DNA of 63,283 nt, filler included, from Basidiobolus ranarum (lineage: Eukaryota): assembly GCA_040143965.1 (NCBI GenBank). It is 48 parts of 48 records of this genome, joined end to end, with 100 filler letters (N's around TTAATTAATTAA, not from the genome) between each part and the next. Parts side by side here need not be neighbours in the genome. Positions count along the whole stretch, not along the records: positions 48,914 to 50,130 come from JASJQH010005956.1; 47 more parts are not named here. One strand, written 5' to 3'. Positions within the stretch are counted from its first letter, which is position 1; each line of letters opens with the position of its first letter. The translations under genes were made by a program, and so were the position numbers. A model generated the notes under the pieces. The model searched no databases. It saw only the letters and a program-made list of their open reading frames with translations, and was not told the DNA's origin. Shown piece after piece: positions 10,610 to 62,069 of this stretch.

Positions 10610-10975
10610 GAGGACTGCGTCCCCCAGACCCCCTCTTTTCATCCTTACCCTCCCTTACCCTTACCAGAACATCTATATCCTATTCTTCAAACTTTAATTA
10701 CAAAACTACGGATGTAGTTTTAGCTTCTTTCTTTTTCTTGAAATAAAGGTTTCATATGTTGGTGACTCTCTCCCCTCTAACCCCATTCTGGAACTTTCTA
10801 TTACTAGCTCTATCTGTCTGGAATATTCTTAGGTCTAGCTTACAAGGATACCCAGCTTTGTAAATATATTGACTTTATCTTTGAACTTAATATTCAAACA
10901 CGGCTTATTTACATATTAACTTTTTTTAACTTGATAAATAAGTATTTCACCTTTTGGTGCTATTCATTCCCCTAA
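10610..10975 (+). mobile_element. Two head-to-tail non-LTR element 3' ends with hairpin and CCCTAA-like tails
   Basis: AATAAA...GGTGACTCTCTCCCCTCTAACCCC (ends ~10784) and AATAAG..CACCTTTTGGTG..CCCCTAA (ends 10975). Confidence 0.65.
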
Positions 10976-16390: not shown

Positions 16391-17129
16391 TGTTGAAATT
16401 AGCATTGCCAAAACACCTACATAGTCATATATAGCATAGTATTTAGCTGCTCTGTATTTCACCAAGTTATCACCCACTATTCTCAAGAGGAATTTACCTA
16501 GAAGTTCTCCAATATATAGATTTTTCAAACTTGTGCTAGAAGCCCCGAACTTTGCACACATGTTCTTGGGATCTTCTGTAACGCATTCTACACGTTTGTT
16601 TGCTTAAATCCTGACAGAACTATATATGTCAACTCTCTACTCAATGAATCAATAGGTGAAAGCCATCAATTTTTCTAGTTCTCCAAACCACTTTCAACAA
16701 ACTCCCAAAACACTTCAACAACTAGCAGATATAGATAGTAGCAGAGAGCCTTGACCATGTTTAAGTGTTTTAAATCTATATATCTGAGACTTCCAAATAA
16801 GTTTTGGATTTTAGTGATATTTTAGTTCAATATGAGATAACTGAGTACTAAGCTATATGTGACTATATATATGCTTAGGCAATGCTAATTTCAACATTAG
16901 TGGGATATTTGAAAGTGTATCTTGCTAATTACTGTTGAAATTAGCATTGCCTAAACACCTATATAGTCATATATAGCTTGGTACTTAGTTATCTTATAAC
17001 TCACTAAGACATTATCAATTATTCTCAATTGCAATTTACTTAGAATATTTTTACCAACTTAGAAGTTCTCAGATATGTAGATTTTTCAAACTTGTGCTAG
17101 AAGCCCCACAATTTGCACCCATGTTCCTG
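16391..17129. mobile_element. Cluster of Copia family-A LTRs (+16391-16720, partial - ~16830-16896, partial +16933-17129)
   Basis: TGTTGAAATTAGCATTGCC starts and similarity to 27996-28343. Confidence 0.85.
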
Positions 17130-21199: not shown

Positions 21200-21310
21200 T
21201 TAAATCCTTGGGAAGTTCCTTTATTAAATACAGTAATTCTTTTATCATCAGGAGCTACTGTTACTTGGGCTCATCATAGCTTATTAGGTGAATCTAGAAA
21301 AGGTACAATA
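21200..21310 (+). pseudogene. cox3: Mitochondrial cox3 fragment in nuclear context (NUMT)
   Basis: Translates [37 protein letters not shown], a conserved COX3 segment, with TTA-rich mitochondrial codon usage; abuts a retrotransposon LTR. Confidence 0.9.
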
Positions 21311-22295
21311 TGTGAATATGTACATATATTTTATTCAAAGGAAAACATATTAATGAATATCTCTGTTTGGCTGCTTGTTTACTCACCATGTACTAAGATT
21401 GATTCATCAGACTCAAGACCATTGAGATTTTGACTTGAAGTGATTGGCCATTTAGTATCAATCAGAGTGTGAGGGAGATCCTTAGTATGTAATGCTGAAG
21501 TTTGTTATGTAATAGGCTGGTTGCTATTGAAATTAGTGAGCTGTTTTATACTATTTTAGTGCTTCACATTAGCCTTTATTGCCATTCATAGATTGTTATT
21601 AAGCCTATGTCATATGCATAGGTATATAATGTCAATATGGAAGTTTGCAAATATATTTAAAGTAGATCTATTTGGAATATGGCTATTGCTGTTTTGGCAG
21701 CATCTGGTTCAATATTATGCCACTGCTTACTACCTCCACCCTTCTCATTGGTTCTCATTTCTGTTACATATATTCAGCATCCAAAACAATCTACAAGAGG
21801 ATTGGAAATATATTGCATATGGGATCTCTGGCTTTGGATCTCCAGAAGCCAAGATTATTCATCCACTGCAAATAGAACTCTTCTATTATTAGATTATTAT
21901 ATCATATCATCTGTATCATCCTTTCTTGGCAATCTTGTGTTAGTTCATCCAGGTTACTTGATATGAAAGTCATGCTCTTTGGTACATTCCATGAAACCTA
22001 ACCATCATGTCATCCCACACATAGTGTATTTCTCCCAAGACCTTCCATGGAAGGTCACCTGATCATCCTTACATCATCCCTCTTTAAATTGGTTCTTGTA
22101 GTCCCCAACACCCCAACACTTGAACTTGCCATAGTATATGCCCTATTCTGTATATTATGTTTCACCCTGCAATATCTATATAGGCTCCATGTTTTCCTTG
22201 ATCAGACCACAGTCGGATCAATGCCAGTTATCAATAAAGATTCTTGCCAAAGTATCTTCCCTGTCTAGTCTTGTCTTGTCTTGTCTTGCCTTGTC
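21311..22295 (+). mobile_element. Long LTR, family C (~1.05 kb, probably Gypsy)
   Basis: Starts TGTGA; has TATATA, AATAAA and (CTTGT)n; the missing terminus ...TTGTGACA is seen inverted at 43368; fragments at ~9981-10226 and ~34694-34942. Confidence 0.65.
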
Positions 22296-27808: not shown

Positions 27809-27995
27809 ATACTTAACCTGATGACCAATGTAATCAAGCTCAGAGGATGTAAATATAGTGATAAGGGGCAAAGGTGATAAGCAGAAAGGAAGGTACTAAG
27901 TACAAACCAGATGGACAATAGGACAAAAACCTGGAATAATGGGAATTAAGAAAGGTGTCTTGGAGGCAAGGTATGGCTTCCAAAGGTCTAGCTTG
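27809..27995 (-). mobile_element. LINE ORF2 C-terminal fragment, interrupted by a Copia-A insertion
   Basis: Reverse strand encodes LDLWKPYL..TPFLIPIIPGFCPIVHLVC...SSELDYIGHQVK, homologous to 49796-49980. Confidence 0.75.
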
Positions 27996-28978
27996 TGTTG
28001 AAATTAGCATTGCCTAAACACTTATATACTCATATATAGCTTAGTACTTAGTTATCTTATAATTCACTAAGATATTATCAATTATCCTCAATTGGAATTT
28101 ACTTAAAATATTTTTACCAACTTGGAAGTTCTCAGATATATAGATTTTTCAAACTTGTGCTAGAAGCCCCAAACTTTGCACACATGTTCCTGGGACCTTC
28201 CTTAACATATTCTACATGTTAGTTTGTTTACATCTTGACAAAACTATAAATGTCAACTTTCTACTCAATAAATCAATAAGTGAAAACCACCAATTCCTCT
28301 AATTCTCCAAACCACTTCCAACAGGCTCCCAAATACTTTAACAGGTTATGAGCCCCAAGCTTGCACTCTCTGTAATGTCTACTTCTCAAATTTATGGAAC
28401 TTTTCCTTCTTCTGAAAAATTGGATGGAACCAATTATCAAGTTTGGAAAATTAAAATGAAAATGCTGCTGCAAGAAAAAGGACTTTGGGACACTGTTGTA
28501 GGAGAAGAAAACAATGCAAAACTATCTGAAACCAAAGTTTTACTCCAGGTCAAAAAAGAACAAAGTGCCTTTAACACAATTTGTCTTAATGTCAAAGACA
28601 AATTGCTAATTCAATGTTCAAGAGCTAAAACTGCCAAGAAGGTATGGAAAGCCTTGGAAGACACCTACCAAACAAGTTCTGCTGCCAACAAGATGTTTCT
28701 AAGAAGACAATTCTTTAACTTAAAGATGAAGCCAGGAGAAGACATTAAATCACTAATTAATAGAGTCACTATTTTAGTGGATGAAATGGAATGCATTGGA
28801 GTACCTTTCACTGATCAAGATATTATAGTTACAGTCCTAAATAGCCTGCCACATGAGTTTCAGAGCCTAGTAATGTCTCTAGAATCAAGAACTGAAATTT
28901 GATCTTAAATTATGTATTTGGCAGACTTCTGGATGAAGATTTATGCAAATCAGGACTCAACCACAAGAATGAACAAAA
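27996..28978 (+). mobile_element. Copia family-A 5' LTR (27996-28343, 348 bp), PBS (28344-28355) and gag
   Basis: TGTTGAA...TTTAACA; GGTTATGAGCCC; 184-aa gag with KLDGTNYQVWKIKM and VLNSLP. An LTR-B start (28979) and a LINE tail follow. Confidence 0.95.
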
Positions 28979-29003
28979 TGTTGAAGTTTATTGTCTTTCT
29001 CAT

Positions 29004-29029
29004 TTAGGGTTCGGGTAAGGGGGATGATA
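29004..29029 (-). mobile_element. LINE 3' tail with variant telomere-like repeats
   Basis: Minus strand reads TCATCCCCCTTACCCGAACCCTAA, joined to a broken LTR-B. Confidence 0.55.
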
Positions 29030-29129: not shown

Positions 29130-30350
29130 AATAAAGTTTTTCATATCCAATTACAAAATCTTCACACAGTTGCTGTATCTGCCTGAGATCTGCCAATGTG
29201 AGTTGATGCCATAAGAATATATTAACAATATCCACAACCAACTCCCAATGTTGCAAATACTTATCAGGCAAAAATCTTTTCAAAATTCCACTGGAATATA
29301 TACAAATCCCATACTTCCAGACTTTGCATTTGATTAAATGCCTAGATGAGTGGATATTGATGTAAGTCCTGGTAAAGTATGATGGTATCTTGAGGTTTTC
29401 AAGCATTTTCCTAATGATTCACACTTTAATCCTATCACAAATGGCTCATTCATATCAGATTATCCACTCTATAGCTGAGTAAGAATTATTGCAATGTTGT
29501 TGAATAATAAGTGAATAGTACCTAATGGGAAGCTCTGGCTCCAGCTGATCCCCTTTAGCAATATAATCTTAGGCTTACAGCTAATCCCAAGTTTGATGTT
29601 AGACTGACTATTTGGTGAATTGATATCAGTGATTATATTGAAATCTGACCAGATTCTTGATGATGAAATCATGAAGTTTAGTGTTGTATTTGGATAATAG
29701 TGATACATATACCTGTTAGAGTAAACTTCATTGATTTAACAAAATCTACAGCAAGATAGTGCATTTTCCTGCAAAAACCTCCAAGCTTACTGATGGCAGG
29801 AGTGTCACCAATACATACAATGTTACTAGGTTTAATAAAATATTCACCCATCTGAACCCCATTGGTTAACCATTCAAATTCTGCAATCAAAGGCACCAAG
29901 AAGGTATCTGTAAGCACTGGTGATTTAGGTCCAGATATGATAGATGGTATCAGAATGTCATGACTCTTATACTGTTCAGAAGGAGGAAGATTTAAGTTGA
30001 TTAAAATTATTGGCCAGCAAGCCTTTCTAATGACATATTTGTTTAGTGAGAAACCATCCAGAGCCAATGCAAATGCATGATCATACATGTTCTCAAAAAT
30101 ACCTTGACTTTTCAGATTTTGGTAGTGATGTCCATCACATATATTGGTAAAACCATCAGCTTTATGGTGAGTACTTTGATATTGGATCAATGATCTATAT
30201 TTAGGTGATTTCATCAAAATTTTCAGATTGGGAATCAATAGTATGTAAGCCAAATATGAACAATATTTACCTGATTCAGTGATTGCCAATAGTGTGCCAA
30301 CAGTACATAACTTCAGGTTTTTCAGCTCACCGGTGTGAGCCAAACGTCCA
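29130..30350 (-). mobile_element. CMC/CACTA Tnp2-type (Transposase_21-like) DDE transposase core, degenerate
   Basis: ALALDGF, WPIILINLNLPP, IISGPKSP, CIGDTPAISKLGGF, LGTIHLLFNNI, KCKVWK, FVIGYEKLY. Confidence 0.92.
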
Positions 30351-30450: not shown

Positions 30451-30900
30451 TTTTGCTTTGGTTTGGTTGAGGGTGTCCCATCACAGGACGATATTGAGCA
30501 GGCTGCTCGTGATGCTAATATCCATGACTTCATCGTTGGGCTACCACAGGGTTACGATACTCCTTTAGGTGGTAAGGGCTCCCAACTGTCAGGTGGACAG
30601 AAGCAACGTATTGCTATTGCCCGTGCATTGATTCGTAAACCAAAGATCTTATTGTTGGATGAGGCTACCTCAGCACTAGACGCTGCTTCTGAGAAAGTGG
30701 TGCAAACTGCTCTCGACAATGCAGCAAAGGGGCGTACTACCATTGCTGTGGCTCATCGTTTGTCAACAATCCAGAAAGCAGATATCATATATGTGTTCAA
30801 AAATGGCGTTGTTAATGAGCAGGGAACACACGATGAATTAATGGCGCTCAAGGGTCAATACTACGCACTTGTAATCCAACAAGATTTAAGTAGTAACTAA
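30451..30900 (+). CDS. ABCB (MDR/P-glycoprotein-like) transporter, C-terminal NBD
   Basis: [43 protein letters not shown]; stop at 30900. Confidence 0.95.
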
Positions 30901-31560: not shown

Positions 31561-31671
31561 AGGGTTAGGGGGGATGAAAAGCACCAGATGGTGTAGACTT
31601 TATTTAGCTTAAATACTAATCTAAACAAAGTGACAATCAAGACATCAATCTTTTGAGATATTGTGACAATA
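31561..31671 (-). mobile_element. LINE 3' end with hairpin and CCCTAACCCT tail
   Basis: Reverse complement is near-identical to 49170-49274 (CACCATCTGGTG...CCCCCCTAACCCT). Confidence 0.8.
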
Positions 31672-39688: not shown

Positions 39689-40444
39689 TCCACTAATTTC
39701 CATTATTGACAAACCATTTTTACCTTTGTTACTCCCTCCCACTCCACTTAACAGTGTCTTAGATTCTACTGACTTAACTTTTCTGCTTTGCAACATTCAT
39801 ACAAATACTCCAGATCTCCTTACATTAGTTAAGAAACTACAAAAGTAGTTATGGCTTCTTTGTTTTGTTTGAAATAAAGATTTCACCTTTTGGTGACTGT
39901 CTCCCCCCTAACCCTTCTAGCACAAGTTTGAAAAATCCATATATCTGAGAACTTCTAAGTTGGTAAAATATTCCAAGTAAATTCTGGTTGAGAATAATGG
40001 ATAGTATCTTAGTGAATTATAAGATAACTAGGTACTATGCTATATATGACTATATAGGTGTTTAGGCAAAGCTAATTTCAACACTAACTTGGCTAATTTA
40101 TTTATTGACTGTGTTTAAATTGGTAAATAAATATTACACCTTCTGGTGCTTACCATTTCCTTAACCTTTTAAAAAATGTATATATCAGTGAACTTCCAAG
40201 TTGGTAAAAATATTCCAAGTAAATTTCAATTGAGAATAATGGGTAATATCTTAGTTTAATATCAAATAACTAAATACTAAGCTATATTTGACTATATAGG
40301 TGCTTAGCCAATGCTAATTTCAACCACTACAACCTATATTGTTGGCATTTTATGCTAAATTAACTTATTTATTAAATGATTGTTAATCAACTTATTAAAT
40401 AAGTATGACCCCCTCTGGTGTTTTTCATCCTCTAAGCCTAGCCC
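39689..40444. mobile_element. Alternating LINE 3' tails (+; ending ~39915, 40166, 40444) and Copia-A LTR fragments (-; ~39916-40083, ~40170-40324)
   Basis: Three hairpin+CCTAA tails; each LTR piece retains the TTCAAC(A) terminus. Confidence 0.75.
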
Positions 40445-46279: not shown

Positions 46280-47496
46280 TGTTGAGTTATGTCTAATCAG
46301 TCAAATATGTGCATATGTAGAGACTAAACACAACAAGATTCTTGTATTTTTTGATTCTCATTATGGCTAGAATACAAAGCCTAAAATATCCAAATAAAGG
46401 CATGCATATTAATTCAAATTCCTACAGCAGAAAACCCAGTAATTTGCCATTCAAAAATTATTTTTTTGCAAAAATTGCTGGATATTGAATAACACATGCC
46501 AAAATTGAGGATCAATATTTTAATATATATGAATATCATTAAGATACCATCAAGAAACCACCATCACACCATCAAAATCCCCGGCAGAATGCAAGCCAAC
46601 AATATTGTGACGGTTCTCTGATGGTTTTGCTATTTTGGAGGGTGGATCCAATCCGGATCAAATTGATTTAATTTTTGTCAGGGATATGGTCTTTCTTAGA
46701 TAGCTGAAGATTGGTTTTACTGCAGTTTTGTGCTCAGATTCTGAATTCCTGAGATATTCTTTGACAGTTCCCCCTGCCACAGGAATGTCTGGATATGTTC
46801 TAGTCATTGTATACATTAAGCTATCCACAATGGATTGAAAAGGGAACTCTTGGCTCTGTTTCAAGTCATTTTAGCCAAAACTGGATTAAATTTTGATTAA
46901 CTTCACACTGGGATCCTTTGGTGCTGCTGTAGGCTGGCTATTCTCCATGTGGAAGCCTTTCATGATGTCTAGGATGTATCTAGACTAATTTGGCATGAGT
47001 TTCTCCTTGTGTGTATCTCTCTTGATTTGGATTCTTAGGAAACTACTTAACCCACCCATATAAGCCTTCTGCAGCTGGTTTGATATGCTGCTTTTGTTGA
47101 AATTAGCATTGCCTAAACACCTATATAGTCATATATAGCTTAGTACTGAGTTATCTTATGATTCACCAAGATACTATCAATTATTCTCAATTGGAATTTA
47201 CTTAGAATATTTTTACCGACTTAGAAGTTCTCAGATATATAGATTTTTCAAACTTGTGCTCGATGCCCCAAACTTTGCACACATGTTCCTGGGACCTTCC
47301 TTAACATATTCTACATGTTAGTTTGTTTACATCTTGACAAAACTATAAATGTCAACTTTCTACTTAATAAATCAATAAGTGAAAACCACCAATTCCTCTA
47401 ATTCTCCAAACCACTTTCAACAGACTCCCAAATACTTTAACAGATTATGAGCCCCAAGCTTGCACTCTCTGTAATGTCTACTTCTCAAATTTATGG
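46280..47496. mobile_element. CACTA end A (to 46683), Copia RT remnant (-), Copia-A LTR 47095-47442, PBS and gag start
   Basis: TTTTGTCAGGG terminus; FPFQSIVDSLMY; TGTTGAA...TTTAACA|GATTATGAGCCC. Confidence 0.88.
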
Positions 47497-48813: not shown

Positions 48814-48913
48814 NNNNNNNNNNNNNNNNNNNNNNNNNNNNNNNNNNNNNNNNNNNNTTAATTAATTAANNNNNNNNNNNNNNNNNNNNNNNNNNNNNNN
48901 NNNNNNNNNNNNN

Positions 48914-50097
48914 TAATCCTAGTCTCATTCCACTAATTTCCATTGTTGACAAACCATTTTTACCTTTGTTACTCCCTCCCACTCCACTTAACAGTGTCTT
49001 AGATTCTACTGACTTAACTTTTCTACTTTGCAACATTCATACAAATACTCCAGATCTCCTTATATTAGTTAAGAAACTACAAAATTAGTTATGGCTTCTT
49101 TGTTTTGTTTGAAATAAAGATGTCACCTTTTGGTGACTGTCTCCCCCCTAAGTATGGATATGATTCAGTATTGTCACAATATCTTCAAAGCTTGATGTCT
49201 TGATTGTCACTTTGTTTAGATTAGTATTTAAGCTATATAAAGTCTACACCATCTGGTGCTTTTCATCCCCCTAAGTGTTGATTGTCACTTTGTTTAGATT
49301 AGTATTTAAGCTAAATAAAGTCTACACCATCTGGTGCTTTTCATCCCCCCTAAGGCTTCTTTTCTTTTGTTTGAATCAAAGATTTCACCTGTTGGTGGCT
49401 GTTTCCCCCTAACCCTAACCCTAAGTTTGTGATACCAGTTCTGGAATATGGAGTACATATACTCCCACTCAACCAAAGAGACTACTCTAAGCTTGATACA
49501 TTCATAAGCTACTGCCTCAGGCTGCTGATGCCTGACTTATCTGAGACTCCCTATGATCATGCTCTGAATGGAACTTTTGGATTCTCCCCAATCATATTAG
49601 AGTAGTTTTACTCAGGGCAGGATTTCTACTCCAACTAAATTACTGCAGAAATCCACTGATTAAGAAGTGGCCAGCCATACCATCTTCAAATGCACCATCA
49701 TGCTGGAAATTGATACAAGATGATCCTCTGGTTTCTGAGTTAGCTTTACAGCTGCATGAAACAGAACAGCCTAAAATTGTTGCTATAGACTTCCAGCTAG
49801 ACTTTTGGAAGCAATACCTTACCTACTAGACACCTTTCTTGATTCCCATTATTCCAGGTTTTTGTCTTAATGTCCATCTGGTTTGTACTGAGTATCTTCC
49901 TTTCTGCTTACCACCATTGCCCCTTAACACTATATTTACATCCTCTGAACTTGATTACATAGGTCATCAGGTTAAGGATGGATATGATCCTGTATTGTCA
50001 CAATATCTTAAAAGCTTGATGTCTTGATTGTCACTTTGTTTAGATTAGTATTTAAGCTATATAAAGTCCACAACATCTGGTGCGTTTCATCCCCCTA
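48914..50097 (+). mobile_element. Head-to-tail array of five 5'-truncated LINE 3' ends from two families, each ending CCCCCTA(A)
   Basis: Units end at 49151, 49274, 49353, 49424 and 50097; the last encodes the LINE RT-thumb pattern KFVIPVLEYGVHILPL..YSKLDTFISYCLRLL. Confidence 0.82.
49407..49424 (+). repeat. (CCCTAA)3 telomere-type repeat at a LINE junction
   Basis: CCCTAACCCTAACCCTAA read directly. Confidence 0.9.
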
Positions 50098-50230
50098 GGC
50101 ATATAAGATCATGCATTTGCATTGGCTCTGNNNNNNNNNNNNNNNNNNNNNNNNNNNNNNNNNNNNNNNNNNNNTTAATTAATTAANNNNNNNNNNNNNN
50201 NNNNNNNNNNNNNNNNNNNNNNNNNNNNNN

Positions 50231-51446
50231 CCAAGTAAATTCCAATTGAGAATAATTGATAATATCTTAGTGAATTACAAGATAACTAAGTACTAAGCTA
50301 TATATGACTATATAGGTGCTTAGGCAATGCTAATTTCAACAAGAGCTTGCCATATATTCTGCTTCTGTAGTTGATAACGTGACAGTTTGTTGTTTCTTGC
50401 TAATCCAGCTATTAGCCCACCTGCTAGCTTAAACACATATCCAGTTCTGGACTTATGGTCTTCTGTATTGTTAGCCCAGTCTGCATCAGCATATCCTTCC
50501 AAAATAAGGGACATGTTGTACTGCTTACTAAATTGAATTTCATGATATATTGTTCCTTTCAGATAGCATATTAATTGTTTCACAGCTATCCAATGTTCCA
50601 TTGCAGGATTATCCATATATTTGCTTACTATGCTTACTGCTGTAGCAATATCAGGCCTAATACCAGTTGTTGCATATATGAGACTTCCAACTGCACCACA
50701 GTAAGGAGTATGTTTCATGATTTCAATATCTTCAGAGGTTTTTGGTTCCATATCCTTAGTAAGTTTCAGCATACATAGTGGATTAAAAGCTGTTTAACAT
50801 TCAAACATATTGAATCTGTTTAAACATCTCCAATATATTTTTCTTGTGTAATACAGAGGGTTCCAATAGTGGAATTTTGATATATCCGCATTCCAAGGAA
50901 ATGTGCTAGTGATCCAAGATCTTGCATTTCAAACTTGGTAGATAGCCAGGTCTCTGTTTGTTTTGTCAGATTCAAGCAATTACTAACTATTATGATATGA
51001 GCAATATAGAGAGCAATTATGACTTTGGTTGCTTTGATAGTCTTGAAGTATATGCAGTGATCAGCTTTGCTACAATAGAAAAGATGTTTCATGAAGATCT
51101 GATTGATTTTGATATTCCATGCACAAGGAGCCTGTTTCAGACCATATAGACTTCTCTGTAACTTGCATACTTGATGTTCTTTTCCTTTTGCAATATATCC
51201 CTCTGGCTGATCCATATATATATATTCATCAATTTCATCATTAAGAAATGCTGTTTTGACATCCATTTGTTCAATCAGCATTCCTTGGTGGGTAGCAATT
51301 GTTAAAATTAGCATTGCCTAAACATCTATATAGTCATGTATAGCTTAGTACTTAGTTATCTTATAATTCACTAAGATATTATCAATTATTCTCAATTGGA
51401 ATTTACTTAGAAGTTCTCAGATATATAGATTTTTCAAACTTGTGCT
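50231..51446. mobile_element. Copia RT-RNase H (-, 50342-51299) bounded by two oppositely oriented Copia-A LTR starts
   Basis: QMDVKTAFLN, LYGLKQAP, EGYADADWA; LTR termini at 50341 and 51300. Confidence 0.92.
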
Positions 51447-56809: not shown

Positions 56810-58024
56810 CTTGGTGGCCAAGCAATAGTCAAGGATGTTGGTGGAACATGGAAAGATTTGACGGATAAAGTAAATATGATGGCTTCGAACCTTACCAATC
56901 AAGTTCGAGATATTGCGAACGTAAGTAAAGCAGTTGCTCGAGGTGACCTCTCCAAAAAGGTTACAGTCAATGTGAAAGGCGAGATGCTAGATCTCAAAAA
57001 TACCATCAATACAATGGTAGATCAGCTACAAACATTTGCGTCTGAGGTAACTCGAGTGGCTCGAGAAGTAGGAACAGAAGGAAAACTCGGTGGTCAAGCA
57101 GTAGTCAAAGATGTCGGTGGAACATGGAAGGATCTCACAGAGAATGTCAACTTAATGGCTTCTAATCTCACAGCACAGGTTCGAGATATAGCAAACGTGA
57201 GTAAAGCCATTTCAGTGGGAGATTTATCTAAAAAGGTTACAGTCGATGTCAAAGGAGAGATCAATGAGCTCAAGGTCACTATCAACACAATGGTGGATCA
57301 ACTGCAAACATTTGCCTCTGAGGTAACCAGAGTCGCACGAGAGGTTGGCACAGAAGGTAATCTGGGTGGCCAAGCAGTGGTTAAAGACGTGGGAGGAACC
57401 TGGAAAGATCTAACCGATAATGTAAACATGATGGCCTCGAACCTTACAAACCAAGTTCGAGATATTGCCAATGTGAGCAAAGCTGTTGCGCGAGGAGATC
57501 TGTCGAAAAAGGTCACAGTCGATGTCAAAGGAGAGATCAATGAGCTCAAAGTCACCATCAATACAATGGTGGATCAACTGCAGACGTTCGCCTCCGAAGT
57601 GACTAGGGTTGCACGAGAAGTAGGAACAGAAGGCAAGCTTGGTGGCCAAGCAGTAGTCAAGGATGTTGGAGGAACTTGGAAAGATCTGACTGATAATGTC
57701 AACCTAATGGCATCTAATCTAACCAACCAAGTCCGAGATATTGCTCACGTTAGCAAGGCTATATCCGTCGGAGATTTGTCAAAAAAAGTTACAGTTGATG
57801 TCAAAGGAGAAATCAATGAGCTCAAAGTCACCATCAATACAATGGTAGATCAACTGCAGACGTTCGCCTCCGAGGTGACCAGGGTCGCCCGAGAGGTAGG
57901 AACAGAAGGAAAACTTGGTGGCCAAGCAATAGTCAAGGATGTTGGTGGAACATGGAAAGATTTGACGGATAAAGTAAATATGATGGCTTCGAACCTTACC
58001 AATCAAGTTCGAGATATTGCGAAC
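56810..58024 (+). CDS. NIK1: Group III hybrid histidine kinase (NIK1/OS-1-like), poly-HAMP repeat region
   Basis: Uninterrupted 92-aa repeats: [73 protein letters not shown]. Confidence 0.9.
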
Positions 58025-58124: not shown

Positions 58125-59339
58125 CACTTTTACCACAGTTGGTTGGCAGCTGTTGCTTGTCACTGACCTGGTACAAGTGGAAAACACTTGTCAACTGTAT
58201 GACTTATAATTGTTCAGTAATTAAACTTCCTTCATGTCCAAATGGTTGTTTGGCTTTCACCGGTGATTCAAAAAACCTTAAGTCATAAACTGCTTGCACA
58301 CAATTGGCAATCACTGAATCATGTAAATATTGTTCATATTTGGCTTACATACTGTTGATTCCCTGTCTTAAAGTTTTGATGAAATCACCCAAATATAGAT
58401 CATTGATCCAATACCAAAGTACTCACTGTAAAGATGATGGTATTACCAATATACTTGATGGATATCACTACCAGAATCTGAAAAGTCAAGGTTTTGTTGA
58501 GTACATATGATCATGCATTTGCACTGGCTCTGGATGGTTTCTCACCAAAAAAATACACCATTGGAAAGGCATGCTGGCCAATAATTTCAATCAACTTAAA
58601 TCTTCCTGCTTCTGAACGGTATAAGAGTCATAATACTTTGATACTATCCACCATATCTGGACCTAAATCAGCAGTACTTATCAATAGATTCTTGAAGCCA
58701 TTGATTGCGGAATTTGAACAGTTATCAAACTTGGTATTAGCCATAAGCCTAAGATTATATTGCTAAAGGGGATCAGCTGGAGCCAGAGCTTCCTATTAGG
58801 CACTATGCATTTACTATTCAACAACATTCATATACCACTTACTCAGCTATATAGTGGAAAATTCAATAAGAATGAGCCATTTGAGATAGGATAAAAGTAT
58901 GAATTGATTGGGAAAATGCTTGAAAACGTCAAGATACCATCATATTTTCCCAGGACTCCCATCAATATCCACTCATCTAGGCATTTATTCAAATGCAAAG
59001 ACTAGAAGTATTGGATTTGTATACATTCAAGTGGAATTTTGAAAAGTTTTCTGCCTGATAAGTATTGAAAACATTGGGAGTTATTTGTGGATATTGTTAA
59101 TGTATTCTTATGGCATCTGTTGAAATTAGCATCGCCCAAACACCTATATAGTCATATATAGCTTAGTACTTAGTTATCTTTTAATTCACTAAGACAGTAT
59201 TGATTTTTCTCAATTGGAATTTACTTAAAATATTTTTACCAACTTAGAAGTTCTCAGATATAGAGATTTTTCAAACTTGTGCTAGAAGCCCCAAACTTTG
59301 CACACATGTTCCTGGGACCTTCCTTAACATATTCTACAT
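58125..59339 (+). mobile_element. CACTA transposase with internal deletion (to 59117), interrupted by a Copia-A LTR (from 59118)
   Basis: ALALDGF, WPIISINLNLP; TGTTGAAATTAGCAT junction. Confidence 0.88.
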
Positions 59340-60754: not shown

Positions 60755-61969
60755 GTATTTAGCTTAGGGAGAAAAGGATCAGAACTTATACAAACTTATG
60801 TATAGTTCTAGAGGTTAATGTGTAAATATAAGTTATTCCAATCAAGAAACTATTCAATTATGGCATAAGAGATTTGGCCATATTGGATTTGATTATTTAG
60901 GCAAAATGATCAAAAATTGCCTAATTTCTGGAGTTCAAATTGACCCCCCAGCCAAAATGGAAATTTGCAAGGGTTGGATAAGTGGAAAGCAAGTCAGTCA
61001 ACCATTCAAGACCTCTAGTTTAGTCAAATTGGTCAAAAAATTGGATCTAATTCATTCAGATTTGTTTAGTATATTTTTATCAACTTTAAAGTTTTATATA
61101 GATTTTTCAAACTGGTGCTAGAAGCCCCACACTTTGCACACATATTCCTGGGACCTTCCTTAGCATATTCTACATGTTAGTTTATTGACATCCTGACAGA
61201 AGCAGGTATGGCAACTTTATGCTCAATAAATCACTAATTTAAAACCACCAACTTCTCTATTTCTCCCAACCACTTCCAATAGGCTCCAAATACTTGAGCA
61301 ATTTTCACTAAATGATTTATTGAGTAGAGAGCTGACATTAATAGTTTTGTCAAGATACAAATAACTCAATGTATAGAATATGCTCAGAAAGGTTGCAGGA
61401 ACATGTGTGCAAAGTTTGGAGCTTCTAGCATAAGCTTGAAAATGTATATATCTTAGAACTTCTCAGTAAATTCCAATATTAAATAATGAGTAGTGTCTTA
61501 GTTCTATACAGCATAACTGAGTACTAAGCTATATATAGCTGTATAGATGTTTAGGCAATACTAATTTCAATAAATAAGACACACTGGTAATATTGATATA
61601 GGAATATTCCTAATTAGAATACAGGGACTACGGATAGATTGCTTTCTGTTTCTGATATCTGCATCATAATTAAAATTAACTAAGATGTTGAAAAGCAATT
61701 AGTTGTCCCAGAAAAAAAACTCCCAAAAAACTTCAACAGTAGGGATGTGTCAAGGAAGCTTGTTAGACTTTTGAAGTGATAGCAAAAGTCTGGAGTATTG
61801 ATATTATTTTCACAAGTCTCAAACTTCCAGATTTTCTGCAATATTCTAGAGGAGTCATCTCAGTGGCATTTATCAGGTTATATTGACAAAAATATCCAAG
61901 ATTATGTTAAAGTATTTGGGAGCCTGTTGGAAGTGGTTTGGAGAATTAGAGGAATTGGTGGTTTTCACT
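60755..61969. mobile_element. Copia-A pre-integrase fragment and several decayed LTR-A/LTR-D pieces
   Basis: LWHKRFGH, LDLIHSDL; LTR-A similarity at ~61090-61298(+), ~61305-61571(-) and 61905-61969(-). Confidence 0.8.
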
Positions 61970-62069
61970 NNNNNNNNNNNNNNNNNNNNNNNNNNNNNNN
62001 NNNNNNNNNNNNNTTAATTAATTAANNNNNNNNNNNNNNNNNNNNNNNNNNNNNNNNNNNNNNNNNNNN

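Follow-up and report, generated by a model that had tools for sequence, protein, structure and literature searches.

The window analyzed here is a stretch of 63,283 nt from the fungus Basidiobolus ranarum (GenBank assembly GCA_040143965.1), in which positions 48914–50130 hold five fragments of long interspersed nuclear elements (LINEs), stacked head-to-tail and provided with C-rich tails that resemble the telomere C-strand repeat CCCTAA. The stack fills a single 1217-bp unplaced contig (JASJQH010005956.1), beyond whose bounds there is no true context. In fact, the window is a pseudo-chromosome of unplaced pieces, consisting of 48 contigs of about 1216–1227 bp that are ordered by decreasing size and joined by 47 identical 100-nt linkers (N44-TTAATTAATTAA-N44; 1228–1327, 2555–2654, and so on to 61970–62069); anything that spans or touches a linker is artificial, and the real sequence searched amounts to 58.6 kb. 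Because the window is made of linker-joined unplaced 1.2-kb contigs, distance and orientation to a chromosome end are absent from the data, and caution is due with all pseudo-chromosomes of this "unplaced" kind, which hold no positional information. The features of the contig and its boundaries are the following:

48814–48913 (no strand): artificial linker, N44-TTAATTAATTAA-N44, left contig boundary
48914–49151 (+): unit A1, last 57 codons of family-A open reading frame 2 (ORF2) with the stop at 49086–49088, tail CCCCCCTAA
49152–49274 (+): unit B1, last 123 nt of family B, tail CCCCCTAA, delimited by repeat finding, BLAST, and alignment
49275–49353 (+): unit B2, last 79 nt of family B, tail CCCCCCTAA
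49354–49424 (+): unit A2, last 59 nt of an A-like subfamily, tail CCCCCTAA plus two extra CCCTAA
49425–50097 (+): unit B3, 673 nt of family B from the C-terminal region of ORF2, tail CCCCCTAGG
50098–50130 (+): right flank of the stack, 33-nt piece of a tnp2/CACTA-type transposase gene, no telomere repeat
50131–50230 (no strand): artificial linker, N44-TTAATTAATTAA-N44, right contig boundary

The five units are all in one orientation and end at 49151, 49274, 49353, 49424, and 50097, exactly as the first-pass annotation of this DNA had read them, and the two families that it described as interleaved are recovered by repeat finding, BLAST, and alignment (A1 and A2 on one side; B1, B2, and B3, at 94–96% identity, on the other). 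Its description of the units as 5′-truncated does not extend to the first of them, which is cut by the contig end at 48914, the first base past the linker; the tail ends that it gave, CCCCCTA(A) with (CCCTAA)3 at one junction, are correct, B3 terminating in CCCCCTAGG instead of TAA. A1 shares 97.8% identity with 39689–39911 (BLAST), and its ORF2 stop lies 63 nt before the tail end in front of a 3′ untranslated region (UTR) with two stem-loops. B2 is closer to a copy on another contig (98.7% identity to 31565–31643, within the tail B4) than to the adjacent B1 (96%). Apart from the (CCCTAA)3 of A2, at 49407–49424, the window has no telomere-type run of at least two units. Identity between A2 and A1 is about 86%, and A2 has a TGTT loop in common with another family, G (10722–10783). 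B3 reaches its natural stop at 50025–50027, 70 nt before the tail end, in a frame decayed by one frameshift near 49575–49605 and one in-frame stop at 49827–49829. The piece on its right matches 58505–58532 (+) and 30059–30089 (−), both within Transposase_21 open reading frames. In the alignment, the private substitutions of the family-B units number 1/106 in B1, 1/78 in B2, 3/105 in B3, and 2/106 in B4, and an age gradient along the stack was rejected on these counts; the divergence of A2 was likewise rejected as a signal of age, since it is partly common to family G and reflects a subfamily difference.

That the longest unit encodes the C-terminal region of a non-LTR (long terminal repeat) ORF2 was confirmed by protein search and tblastn. 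The best match of the 59-aa peptide of B3 (49426–49602) is P0001, a protein of 890 aa (phmmer E 4.9e-17, 66% identity); a full HMMER scan of 1.84e9 representatives gave seven matches at E ≤ 1e-3, two of which (P0006 and P0007) are spurious Ig-repeat proteins while P0005 was left unexamined. Residues 689–865 of P0001 map by tblastn to 49423–49952 in two frames, and the last 56 residues of P0004 (608–663) map to 48915–49082 with 84% identity. Since P0001 and P0004 map onto the contig, A and B are the C-termini of ORF2 from two LINE families that are related to each other. The open reading frames of the contig itself, including the B3 peptide, returned no meaningful Pfam match, and a word-indexed protein search with that peptide gave no match.

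The reverse transcriptase (RT) domain RVT_1 is present in P0001, P0004, P0008, and P0009. In P0001 it is accompanied by Exo_endo_phos_2 (E 3e-6, above the Pfam cut-off), and the best solved-structure matches of this protein are L1 ORF2p (E 1e-11) and R2. P0008 and P0009 show weak matches to the apurinic endonuclease-like (APE) domain, limited to the C-terminal half of the profile (positions 121–225 and 141–225, respectively), and the motifs GD(L/F)N and SDH align among the closest relatives (P0001, P0008, and P0009). No CCHC or restriction-like endonuclease (REL) domain lies C-terminal to the RT in the five aligned relatives, which end ORF2 at one common point, and the ORF2 of the contig stops about 200 aa past the FVIPVLEYG motif, also without a REL domain. 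The profile-based check for APE and REL proposed in the first pass, run on the relatives, thus found the C-terminal half of the former and none of the latter. The earlier remark that no CCHC or restriction-like nuclease is visible in the longest unit holds for the C-terminus of the relatives too, but not as a sign of a nuclease-less element: because APE lies N-terminal of the RT and B3 keeps only the C-terminus of ORF2, the absence of a nuclease in this copy is uninformative. Judged by these matches, the units appear to belong to an APE-type LINE lineage, whose host is apparently an early-diverging fungus. Among the close relatives only P0002, a hypothetical protein of Basidiobolus meristosporus, has a name, the remaining matches being at most 34% identical, and a metagenome scan with ORF2 peptide patterns gave 352 pattern matches, none of which was confirmed.

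The units share a 3′ module composed, in order, of an AATAAAG-containing stem-loop, a CACC-N4-GGTG hairpin, and a C-rich tail. It is found in 11 of 11 aligned tails belonging to at least six families (A, B, C, D, E, and G), to which the partial tail of family F is to be added, and a profile built from the eleven complete tails detected no further copies in the window. In the first stem-loop the 3′ arm is of the AAATAAAG type in all families, while the 5′ arm and the loop vary from family to family; AATAAAG, previously taken for a polyA-like signal, is better described as part of this predicted 3′ arm. The tail is a C-rich single strand of 12–14 nt ending in CCCC(C)TAA, with zero to two further CCCTAA-like units. 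The hairpin attributed to each unit is indeed the CACC/GGTG one, with the exception of B3, in which it is mutated and broken. Its stem is invariant in sequence, and folding of the alignment recovers that stem alone, with 0 compensatory pairs and hence no covariation support. Both stem-loops form in four of six tails folded singly, including those of the most diverged families C and D; the fold z-scores are −6.5 for A1, −2.4 for C, and −2.0 for D and are not significant for A2, B1, and B3. The first stem-loop comes solely from these single-sequence folds, and a two-hairpin 3′ structure is a plausible model.

The tail repeats differ by family, being CCCTAA in A and B, CCTTAA-like in D, and CCCTTA-like in F; therefore, the short repeats are element-encoded or due to RT slippage and are not telomerase-made DNA. 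The tail nevertheless corresponds, as had been noticed, to the C-strand telomere motif and could pair with a TTAGGG 3′ end. A metagenome scan with a DNA pattern of the module gave three matches, none in LINE-like sequence and two in G+C-rich DNA, which were judged to be due to chance.

Twelve tails were counted in the window, on 4 of the 48 contigs. Besides the stack described above, they and a related ORF2 fragment are distributed as follows:

10610–10975 (+): third stack, partial F tail (10610–10665), unit G (118 nt; its last 16 codons and the tail), unit C (192 nt), then a non-LINE flank
27809–27993 (−): family-B ORF2 fragment, corresponding to 49795–49979, abutting the 5′ terminus of a copia LTR
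31563–31671 (−): B4, tail of family B, CCCCCCTAACCC, with non-repeat DNA next to it, the 5′ side cut by the contig end
39689–40440 (+): second stack, A3 tail (to 39915), reverse copia LTR piece, D tail (40088–40164), reverse copia LTR piece, E tail (40330–40440), other DNA

The right neighbor of a tail is a LINE 3′ fragment in the same orientation in six cases and in the opposite orientation in none; the others are two copia LTR interiors, one piece of the tnp2 gene, and three stretches of other DNA, and no telomere array stands next to any of the 12 tails in the window. Of the real sequence, 3.9% belongs to LINE 3′ fragments of these families; a same-orientation LINE neighbor is expected for 1.9% of tails, against the 6/12 observed (P about 4e-8 under random placement). 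In public data, the gene model of P0002, which lies on a contig of 176 kb, continues through two ORF2 pieces arranged head-to-tail; because two other contigs of the window hold stacks and P0002 shows this arrangement, polar tail-to-internal stacking is a genuine trait of the lineage that goes beyond one contig. As regards P0002 itself, its residues 2–441 match P0004 255–663 and residues 443–655 match P0004 319–592; what public data annotate here as a gene is a stack of transposons.

The LTR pieces of the 39689–40440 stack are reverse copia sequences that end exactly at the LTR terminus, so that their position between LINE tails reflects ordinary copia integrations into LINE 3′ ends; likewise, the fragment at 27809–27993 is the outcome of a copia insertion into a LINE. 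These pieces had also been considered as the heads, of about 170 nt (39914–40087 and 40168–40329), of short interspersed nuclear elements spanning 39914–40440, an idea that was rejected since they are reverse copia LTR pieces: they end at the LTR 5′ terminus, which is followed by gag in the contig 27809–29029, and, as regards an RNA polymerase III head, no tRNA gene or Rfam family was found in the window. The copia LTR is itself an abundant repeat of about 300 bp, with the 5′ terminus TGTTGAAA and a gag open reading frame following at 28342, and is present in at least 11 copies or pieces in 58 kb:

454–625: copia LTR
16391–16542 (−): copia LTR
16929–17103 (−): copia LTR
27995–28166 (−): copia LTR
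39914–40087: copia LTR
40168–40329: copia LTR
47095–47263 (−): copia LTR
50231–50349: copia LTR
51300–51446 (−): copia LTR
59118–59288 (−): copia LTR
61422–61570: copia LTR

Some of them lie in inverted, foldback-like pairs (454–700 and 16814–17103). Two LINE insertions of different families, in the same orientation, occur 13 nt apart in the copia LTR (39911–39916 and 40160–40168), at a site that is intact in seven other LTR copies, for instance 28166–28230 (−), and that may be a hot spot for LINE targeting.

At the junctions of the five-unit stack microhomology is limited to 3 nt (TAA) at 49151 and 0–1 nt elsewhere. The overlap proposed earlier for 49151 is real, as B3 has GGTTAAGGATGG where the junction has CCCTAAGTATGG, and the 5′ junction of B1 has TAA(G) in common with the A1 tail; microhomology of this kind does not discriminate between the possible origins of the stack. 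Four internal units can be followed from end to end, and all of them are short (71, 79, 118, and 123 nt); the other units measure 192, 673, at least 109, at least 227, and at least 238 nt.

The preferred explanation, to which a probability of about 0.5 can be given, is repeated target-primed reverse transcription at or next to earlier copies, in an ordinary interior site, by an APE-type LINE of the stringent kind. The RT would recognize the 3′ UTR module of its own LINE RNA and start cDNA synthesis inside the short tail repeat, a new LINE RNA offering its tail as the template on which a DNA 3′ end at or beside an earlier copy is extended. Such target-primed events, repeated in series, would each leave a complete tail joined to the 5′-shortened body of the previous unit, and the stack would be a by-product of this machinery, here inside a copy of a tnp2 transposon. 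Tail-to-internal tandems of ordinary non-LTR elements that arise by repeated insertion are described as common in Drosophila (PMC5932611). Several points weigh against serial insertion at an interior site. Contig ends cut off the left flank of every stack or copy, no common target motif is visible by eye among the six non-LINE right flanks, and the N-terminal half of APE was not seen in any of the five close relatives, so that an active nuclease is putative. Independent serial insertions do not predict that internal units should be shorter. A G directly follows TA(A) at five of five stack junctions (49151/2, 49274/5, 49353/4, 49424/5, and 50096–50098; P about 1e-3) and at none of seven junctions on other contigs, a pattern that may stem from the reuse of one nick site, with duplication of 1 nt of target, or may be due to chance. 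Finally, serial insertion has to ascribe to coincidence or ancestry that the tail is identical to the telomere C-strand and so oriented that it could pair with a G-overhang.

Extension of a DNA 3′ end on the module-bearing tail of a LINE RNA is the step common to all live readings. One of these readings is a single retrotransposition event with serial template jumps, in which the RT would start at a nicked interior target, run off a broken or short template, and jump to the 3′ tail of another module-bearing RNA, so that short 3′ ends would be strung together from the RNAs of any families that happened to be bound. The complete tail on every unit, the very short internal units (71–123 nt), the mixture of families, the 0–3 nt of junction microhomology (TAA at 49151 among them), and the lack of spacers or duplicated target between units are all what such jumping would produce, and there is a precedent in R2 proteins (PMC11371274), which lengthen their products when, with a cDNA completed, they move on to additional 3′ UTR RNAs; in cells, transgene copies in head-to-tail tandem were observed. 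Jumping does not predict the long base unit of 673 nt, however, the copia LTR pieces between the tails at 39689–40440 are integration junctions and not RNA 3′ ends, and the process is undocumented in living cells for this clade; as an origin of the stack it is unlikely. It is improbable that the contig is an assembly chimera, that is, a path through a repeat graph joining separate two-unit junctions from different loci: the contig is short, unplaced, and made nearly entirely of repeats with identical stretches of at least 36 nt, in which neighboring contigs also end, but each unit has its own substitutions, three contigs show stacks with different unit combinations, and a chimera, too, presupposes reads that contain every one of the tail-to-internal junctions. 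Random nesting of insertions would suit a transposon-dense genome in which copia-into-LINE and LINE-into-LTR nesting are both seen, yet it is hard to reconcile with same-orientation neighbors at 6/12 tails and none in the opposite orientation (P about 4e-8), while unequal crossing-over or tandem duplication of one unit would be expected to give units more alike than dispersed copies, which they are not (B2–B4 98.7% versus B2–B1 96%; A2–A1 about 86%); taken together, these origins can be given hardly any weight.

The first-pass annotation had favored a telomere-end or break-healing system, in which RNAs ending in CCCUAA anneal to TTAGGG overhangs or to breaks ending in TTA and units are added outward without a nuclease. 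The exact C-strand motif in the right polarity, the (CCCTAA)3 at one junction, the strictly polar stacking (6/6 junctions), the absence of visible duplications between units, the left sides of all three stacks running off their contigs, and the N-terminal APE half unseen in close relatives speak in its favor. This proposal was not sustained by the unplaced contigs, where none of the 12 tails abuts a telomere array and no other run of (CCCTAA)2 or longer occurs in 58.6 kb. Tails lie on 4 of 48 random small contigs, far above what chromosome ends would account for, and their right flanks are of the interior type, among them a transposase gene, the inside of LTRs, and DNA in the vicinity of an ABC-transporter fragment; the two LINE insertions 13 nt apart inside copia LTRs look like nicking of intact DNA, the relatives retain the APE motifs GD(L/F)N and SDH, and the variant tails (CCTTAA and CCCTTA) are not telomerase products. 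As an account of this stack, end healing is accordingly quite improbable. A broader proposal, that an APE-type LINE lineage with a CCCUAA RNA end primes on any TTAGGG-like or TTA-ending 3′ end and, besides inserting in the interior, extends G-overhangs and breaks into polar terminal arrays, is also improbable; were it true, it would amount to a telomerase-compatible, nuclease-optional mode of end addition, convergent with Athena and Coprina but in a LINE, and a terminal enrichment of the lineage would bear on how often retroelement RTs have adopted telomere-like priming. If instead the reading as repeated interior insertion is right, the contig offers a clean small example of a stringent LINE lineage piling up tail-to-internal stacks, which are a known seed for tandem repeats.

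The other contigs of the window contain copia pieces, tnp2 transposase pieces, an open reading frame with four HAMP repeats, a sugar transporter, and an ABC-transporter fragment, contents that fit a transposon-rich fungus. In particular, the following were located:

21200–21430 (+): cytochrome oxidase subunit III fragment (Pfam COX3, E 1.6e-13) on one small contig
29681–30349 (−), 58482–58763 (+), and 50098–50130: tnp2/CACTA-type transposase (Transposase_21) fragments
30451–30897 (+): ABC-transporter ATP-binding fragment (Pfam ABC_tran, E 4e-13), about 0.7 kb from B4
56810–58024 (+): whole contig open in one frame (405 aa), four HAMP repeats (Pfam E 3e-45), raised G+C

The four-HAMP frame resembles a portion of a group-III hybrid histidine kinase of fungi. 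The COX3 contig either comes from the mitochondrial genome or represents mitochondrial DNA copied into the nucleus.

Among known systems, the stringent APE LINEs, such as eel UnaL2 and the L2-type elements of zebrafish, have a 3′ stem-loop and a tail of short tandem repeats. The elements described here are similar to them in the RT and the C-terminal half of APE carried by the ORF2 of their relatives, in the very short 3′ UTR with a conserved hairpin, in the 1–3 short repeat units that replace poly(A), in the heavy 5′ truncation, and in the presence of one module in several families; unlike them, their tail unit is the telomere C-strand CCCTAA and their host is a fungus, and recognition of the module by the RT is putative. 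Polar head-to-tail arrays of 5′-truncated LINEs are also formed by Zepp in Chlorella, GilM and GilT in Giardia, and HeT-A, TART, and TAHRE in Drosophila, all of which lie at chromosome ends and bear poly(A) tails, in contrast to the interior-type flanks, CCCTAA-like tails, and unplaced contigs found here. TRAS and SART, insect elements of the R1 clade, insert within telomere-repeat arrays and carry poly(A); they too are APE-type LINEs tied to the telomere motif, but in the present case the motif belongs to the element itself, and a TRAS/SART-type identity was ruled out by the lack of a repeat-array flank at all 12 tails. Athena and Coprina are endonuclease-deficient Penelope-like elements; like the units, they carry at the 3′ end a short motif that is the reverse complement of the telomere repeat and form polar arrays of 5′-truncated copies. 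A Penelope-like identity was excluded by the LINE-type RT of the relatives (RVT_1 with Exo_endo_phos_2, together with half of APE) and by the window-wide search, in which neither a hammerhead ribozyme nor any other Rfam family reached the gathering score.

The Drosophila tandems reported in PMC5932611, where HeT-A/TART arrays are mentioned as well, consist for the most part of two copies whose junction often includes a duplication of the target, unlike the stacks of up to five mixed-family units observed here, with no visible duplication beyond a possible single G. According to PMC12857005, the known fungal telomeric non-LTR elements are of the CRE clade with a REL endonuclease; these elements, MoTeR, FoTeR, and Cnl1, have that endonuclease at the C-terminus and are flanked by 3–8 telomere repeats at chromosome ends. 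The fungal host, the non-LTR type, the junctions with a telomere motif, and the many truncated copies are common to the units of B. ranarum, which differ in having no REL domain, an APE half in their relatives, and non-telomeric flanks; an identity as a REL-endonuclease element was discarded, as ORF2 ends without a CCHC or REL domain. The literature searched, supplements and subscription journals being outside its coverage, yielded no account of a CCCTAA tail on an APE-type LINE. In these units a tail identical to the telomere C-strand, in the polarity that would allow pairing with a G-overhang, occurs on elements whose relatives keep at least part of the APE nuclease.

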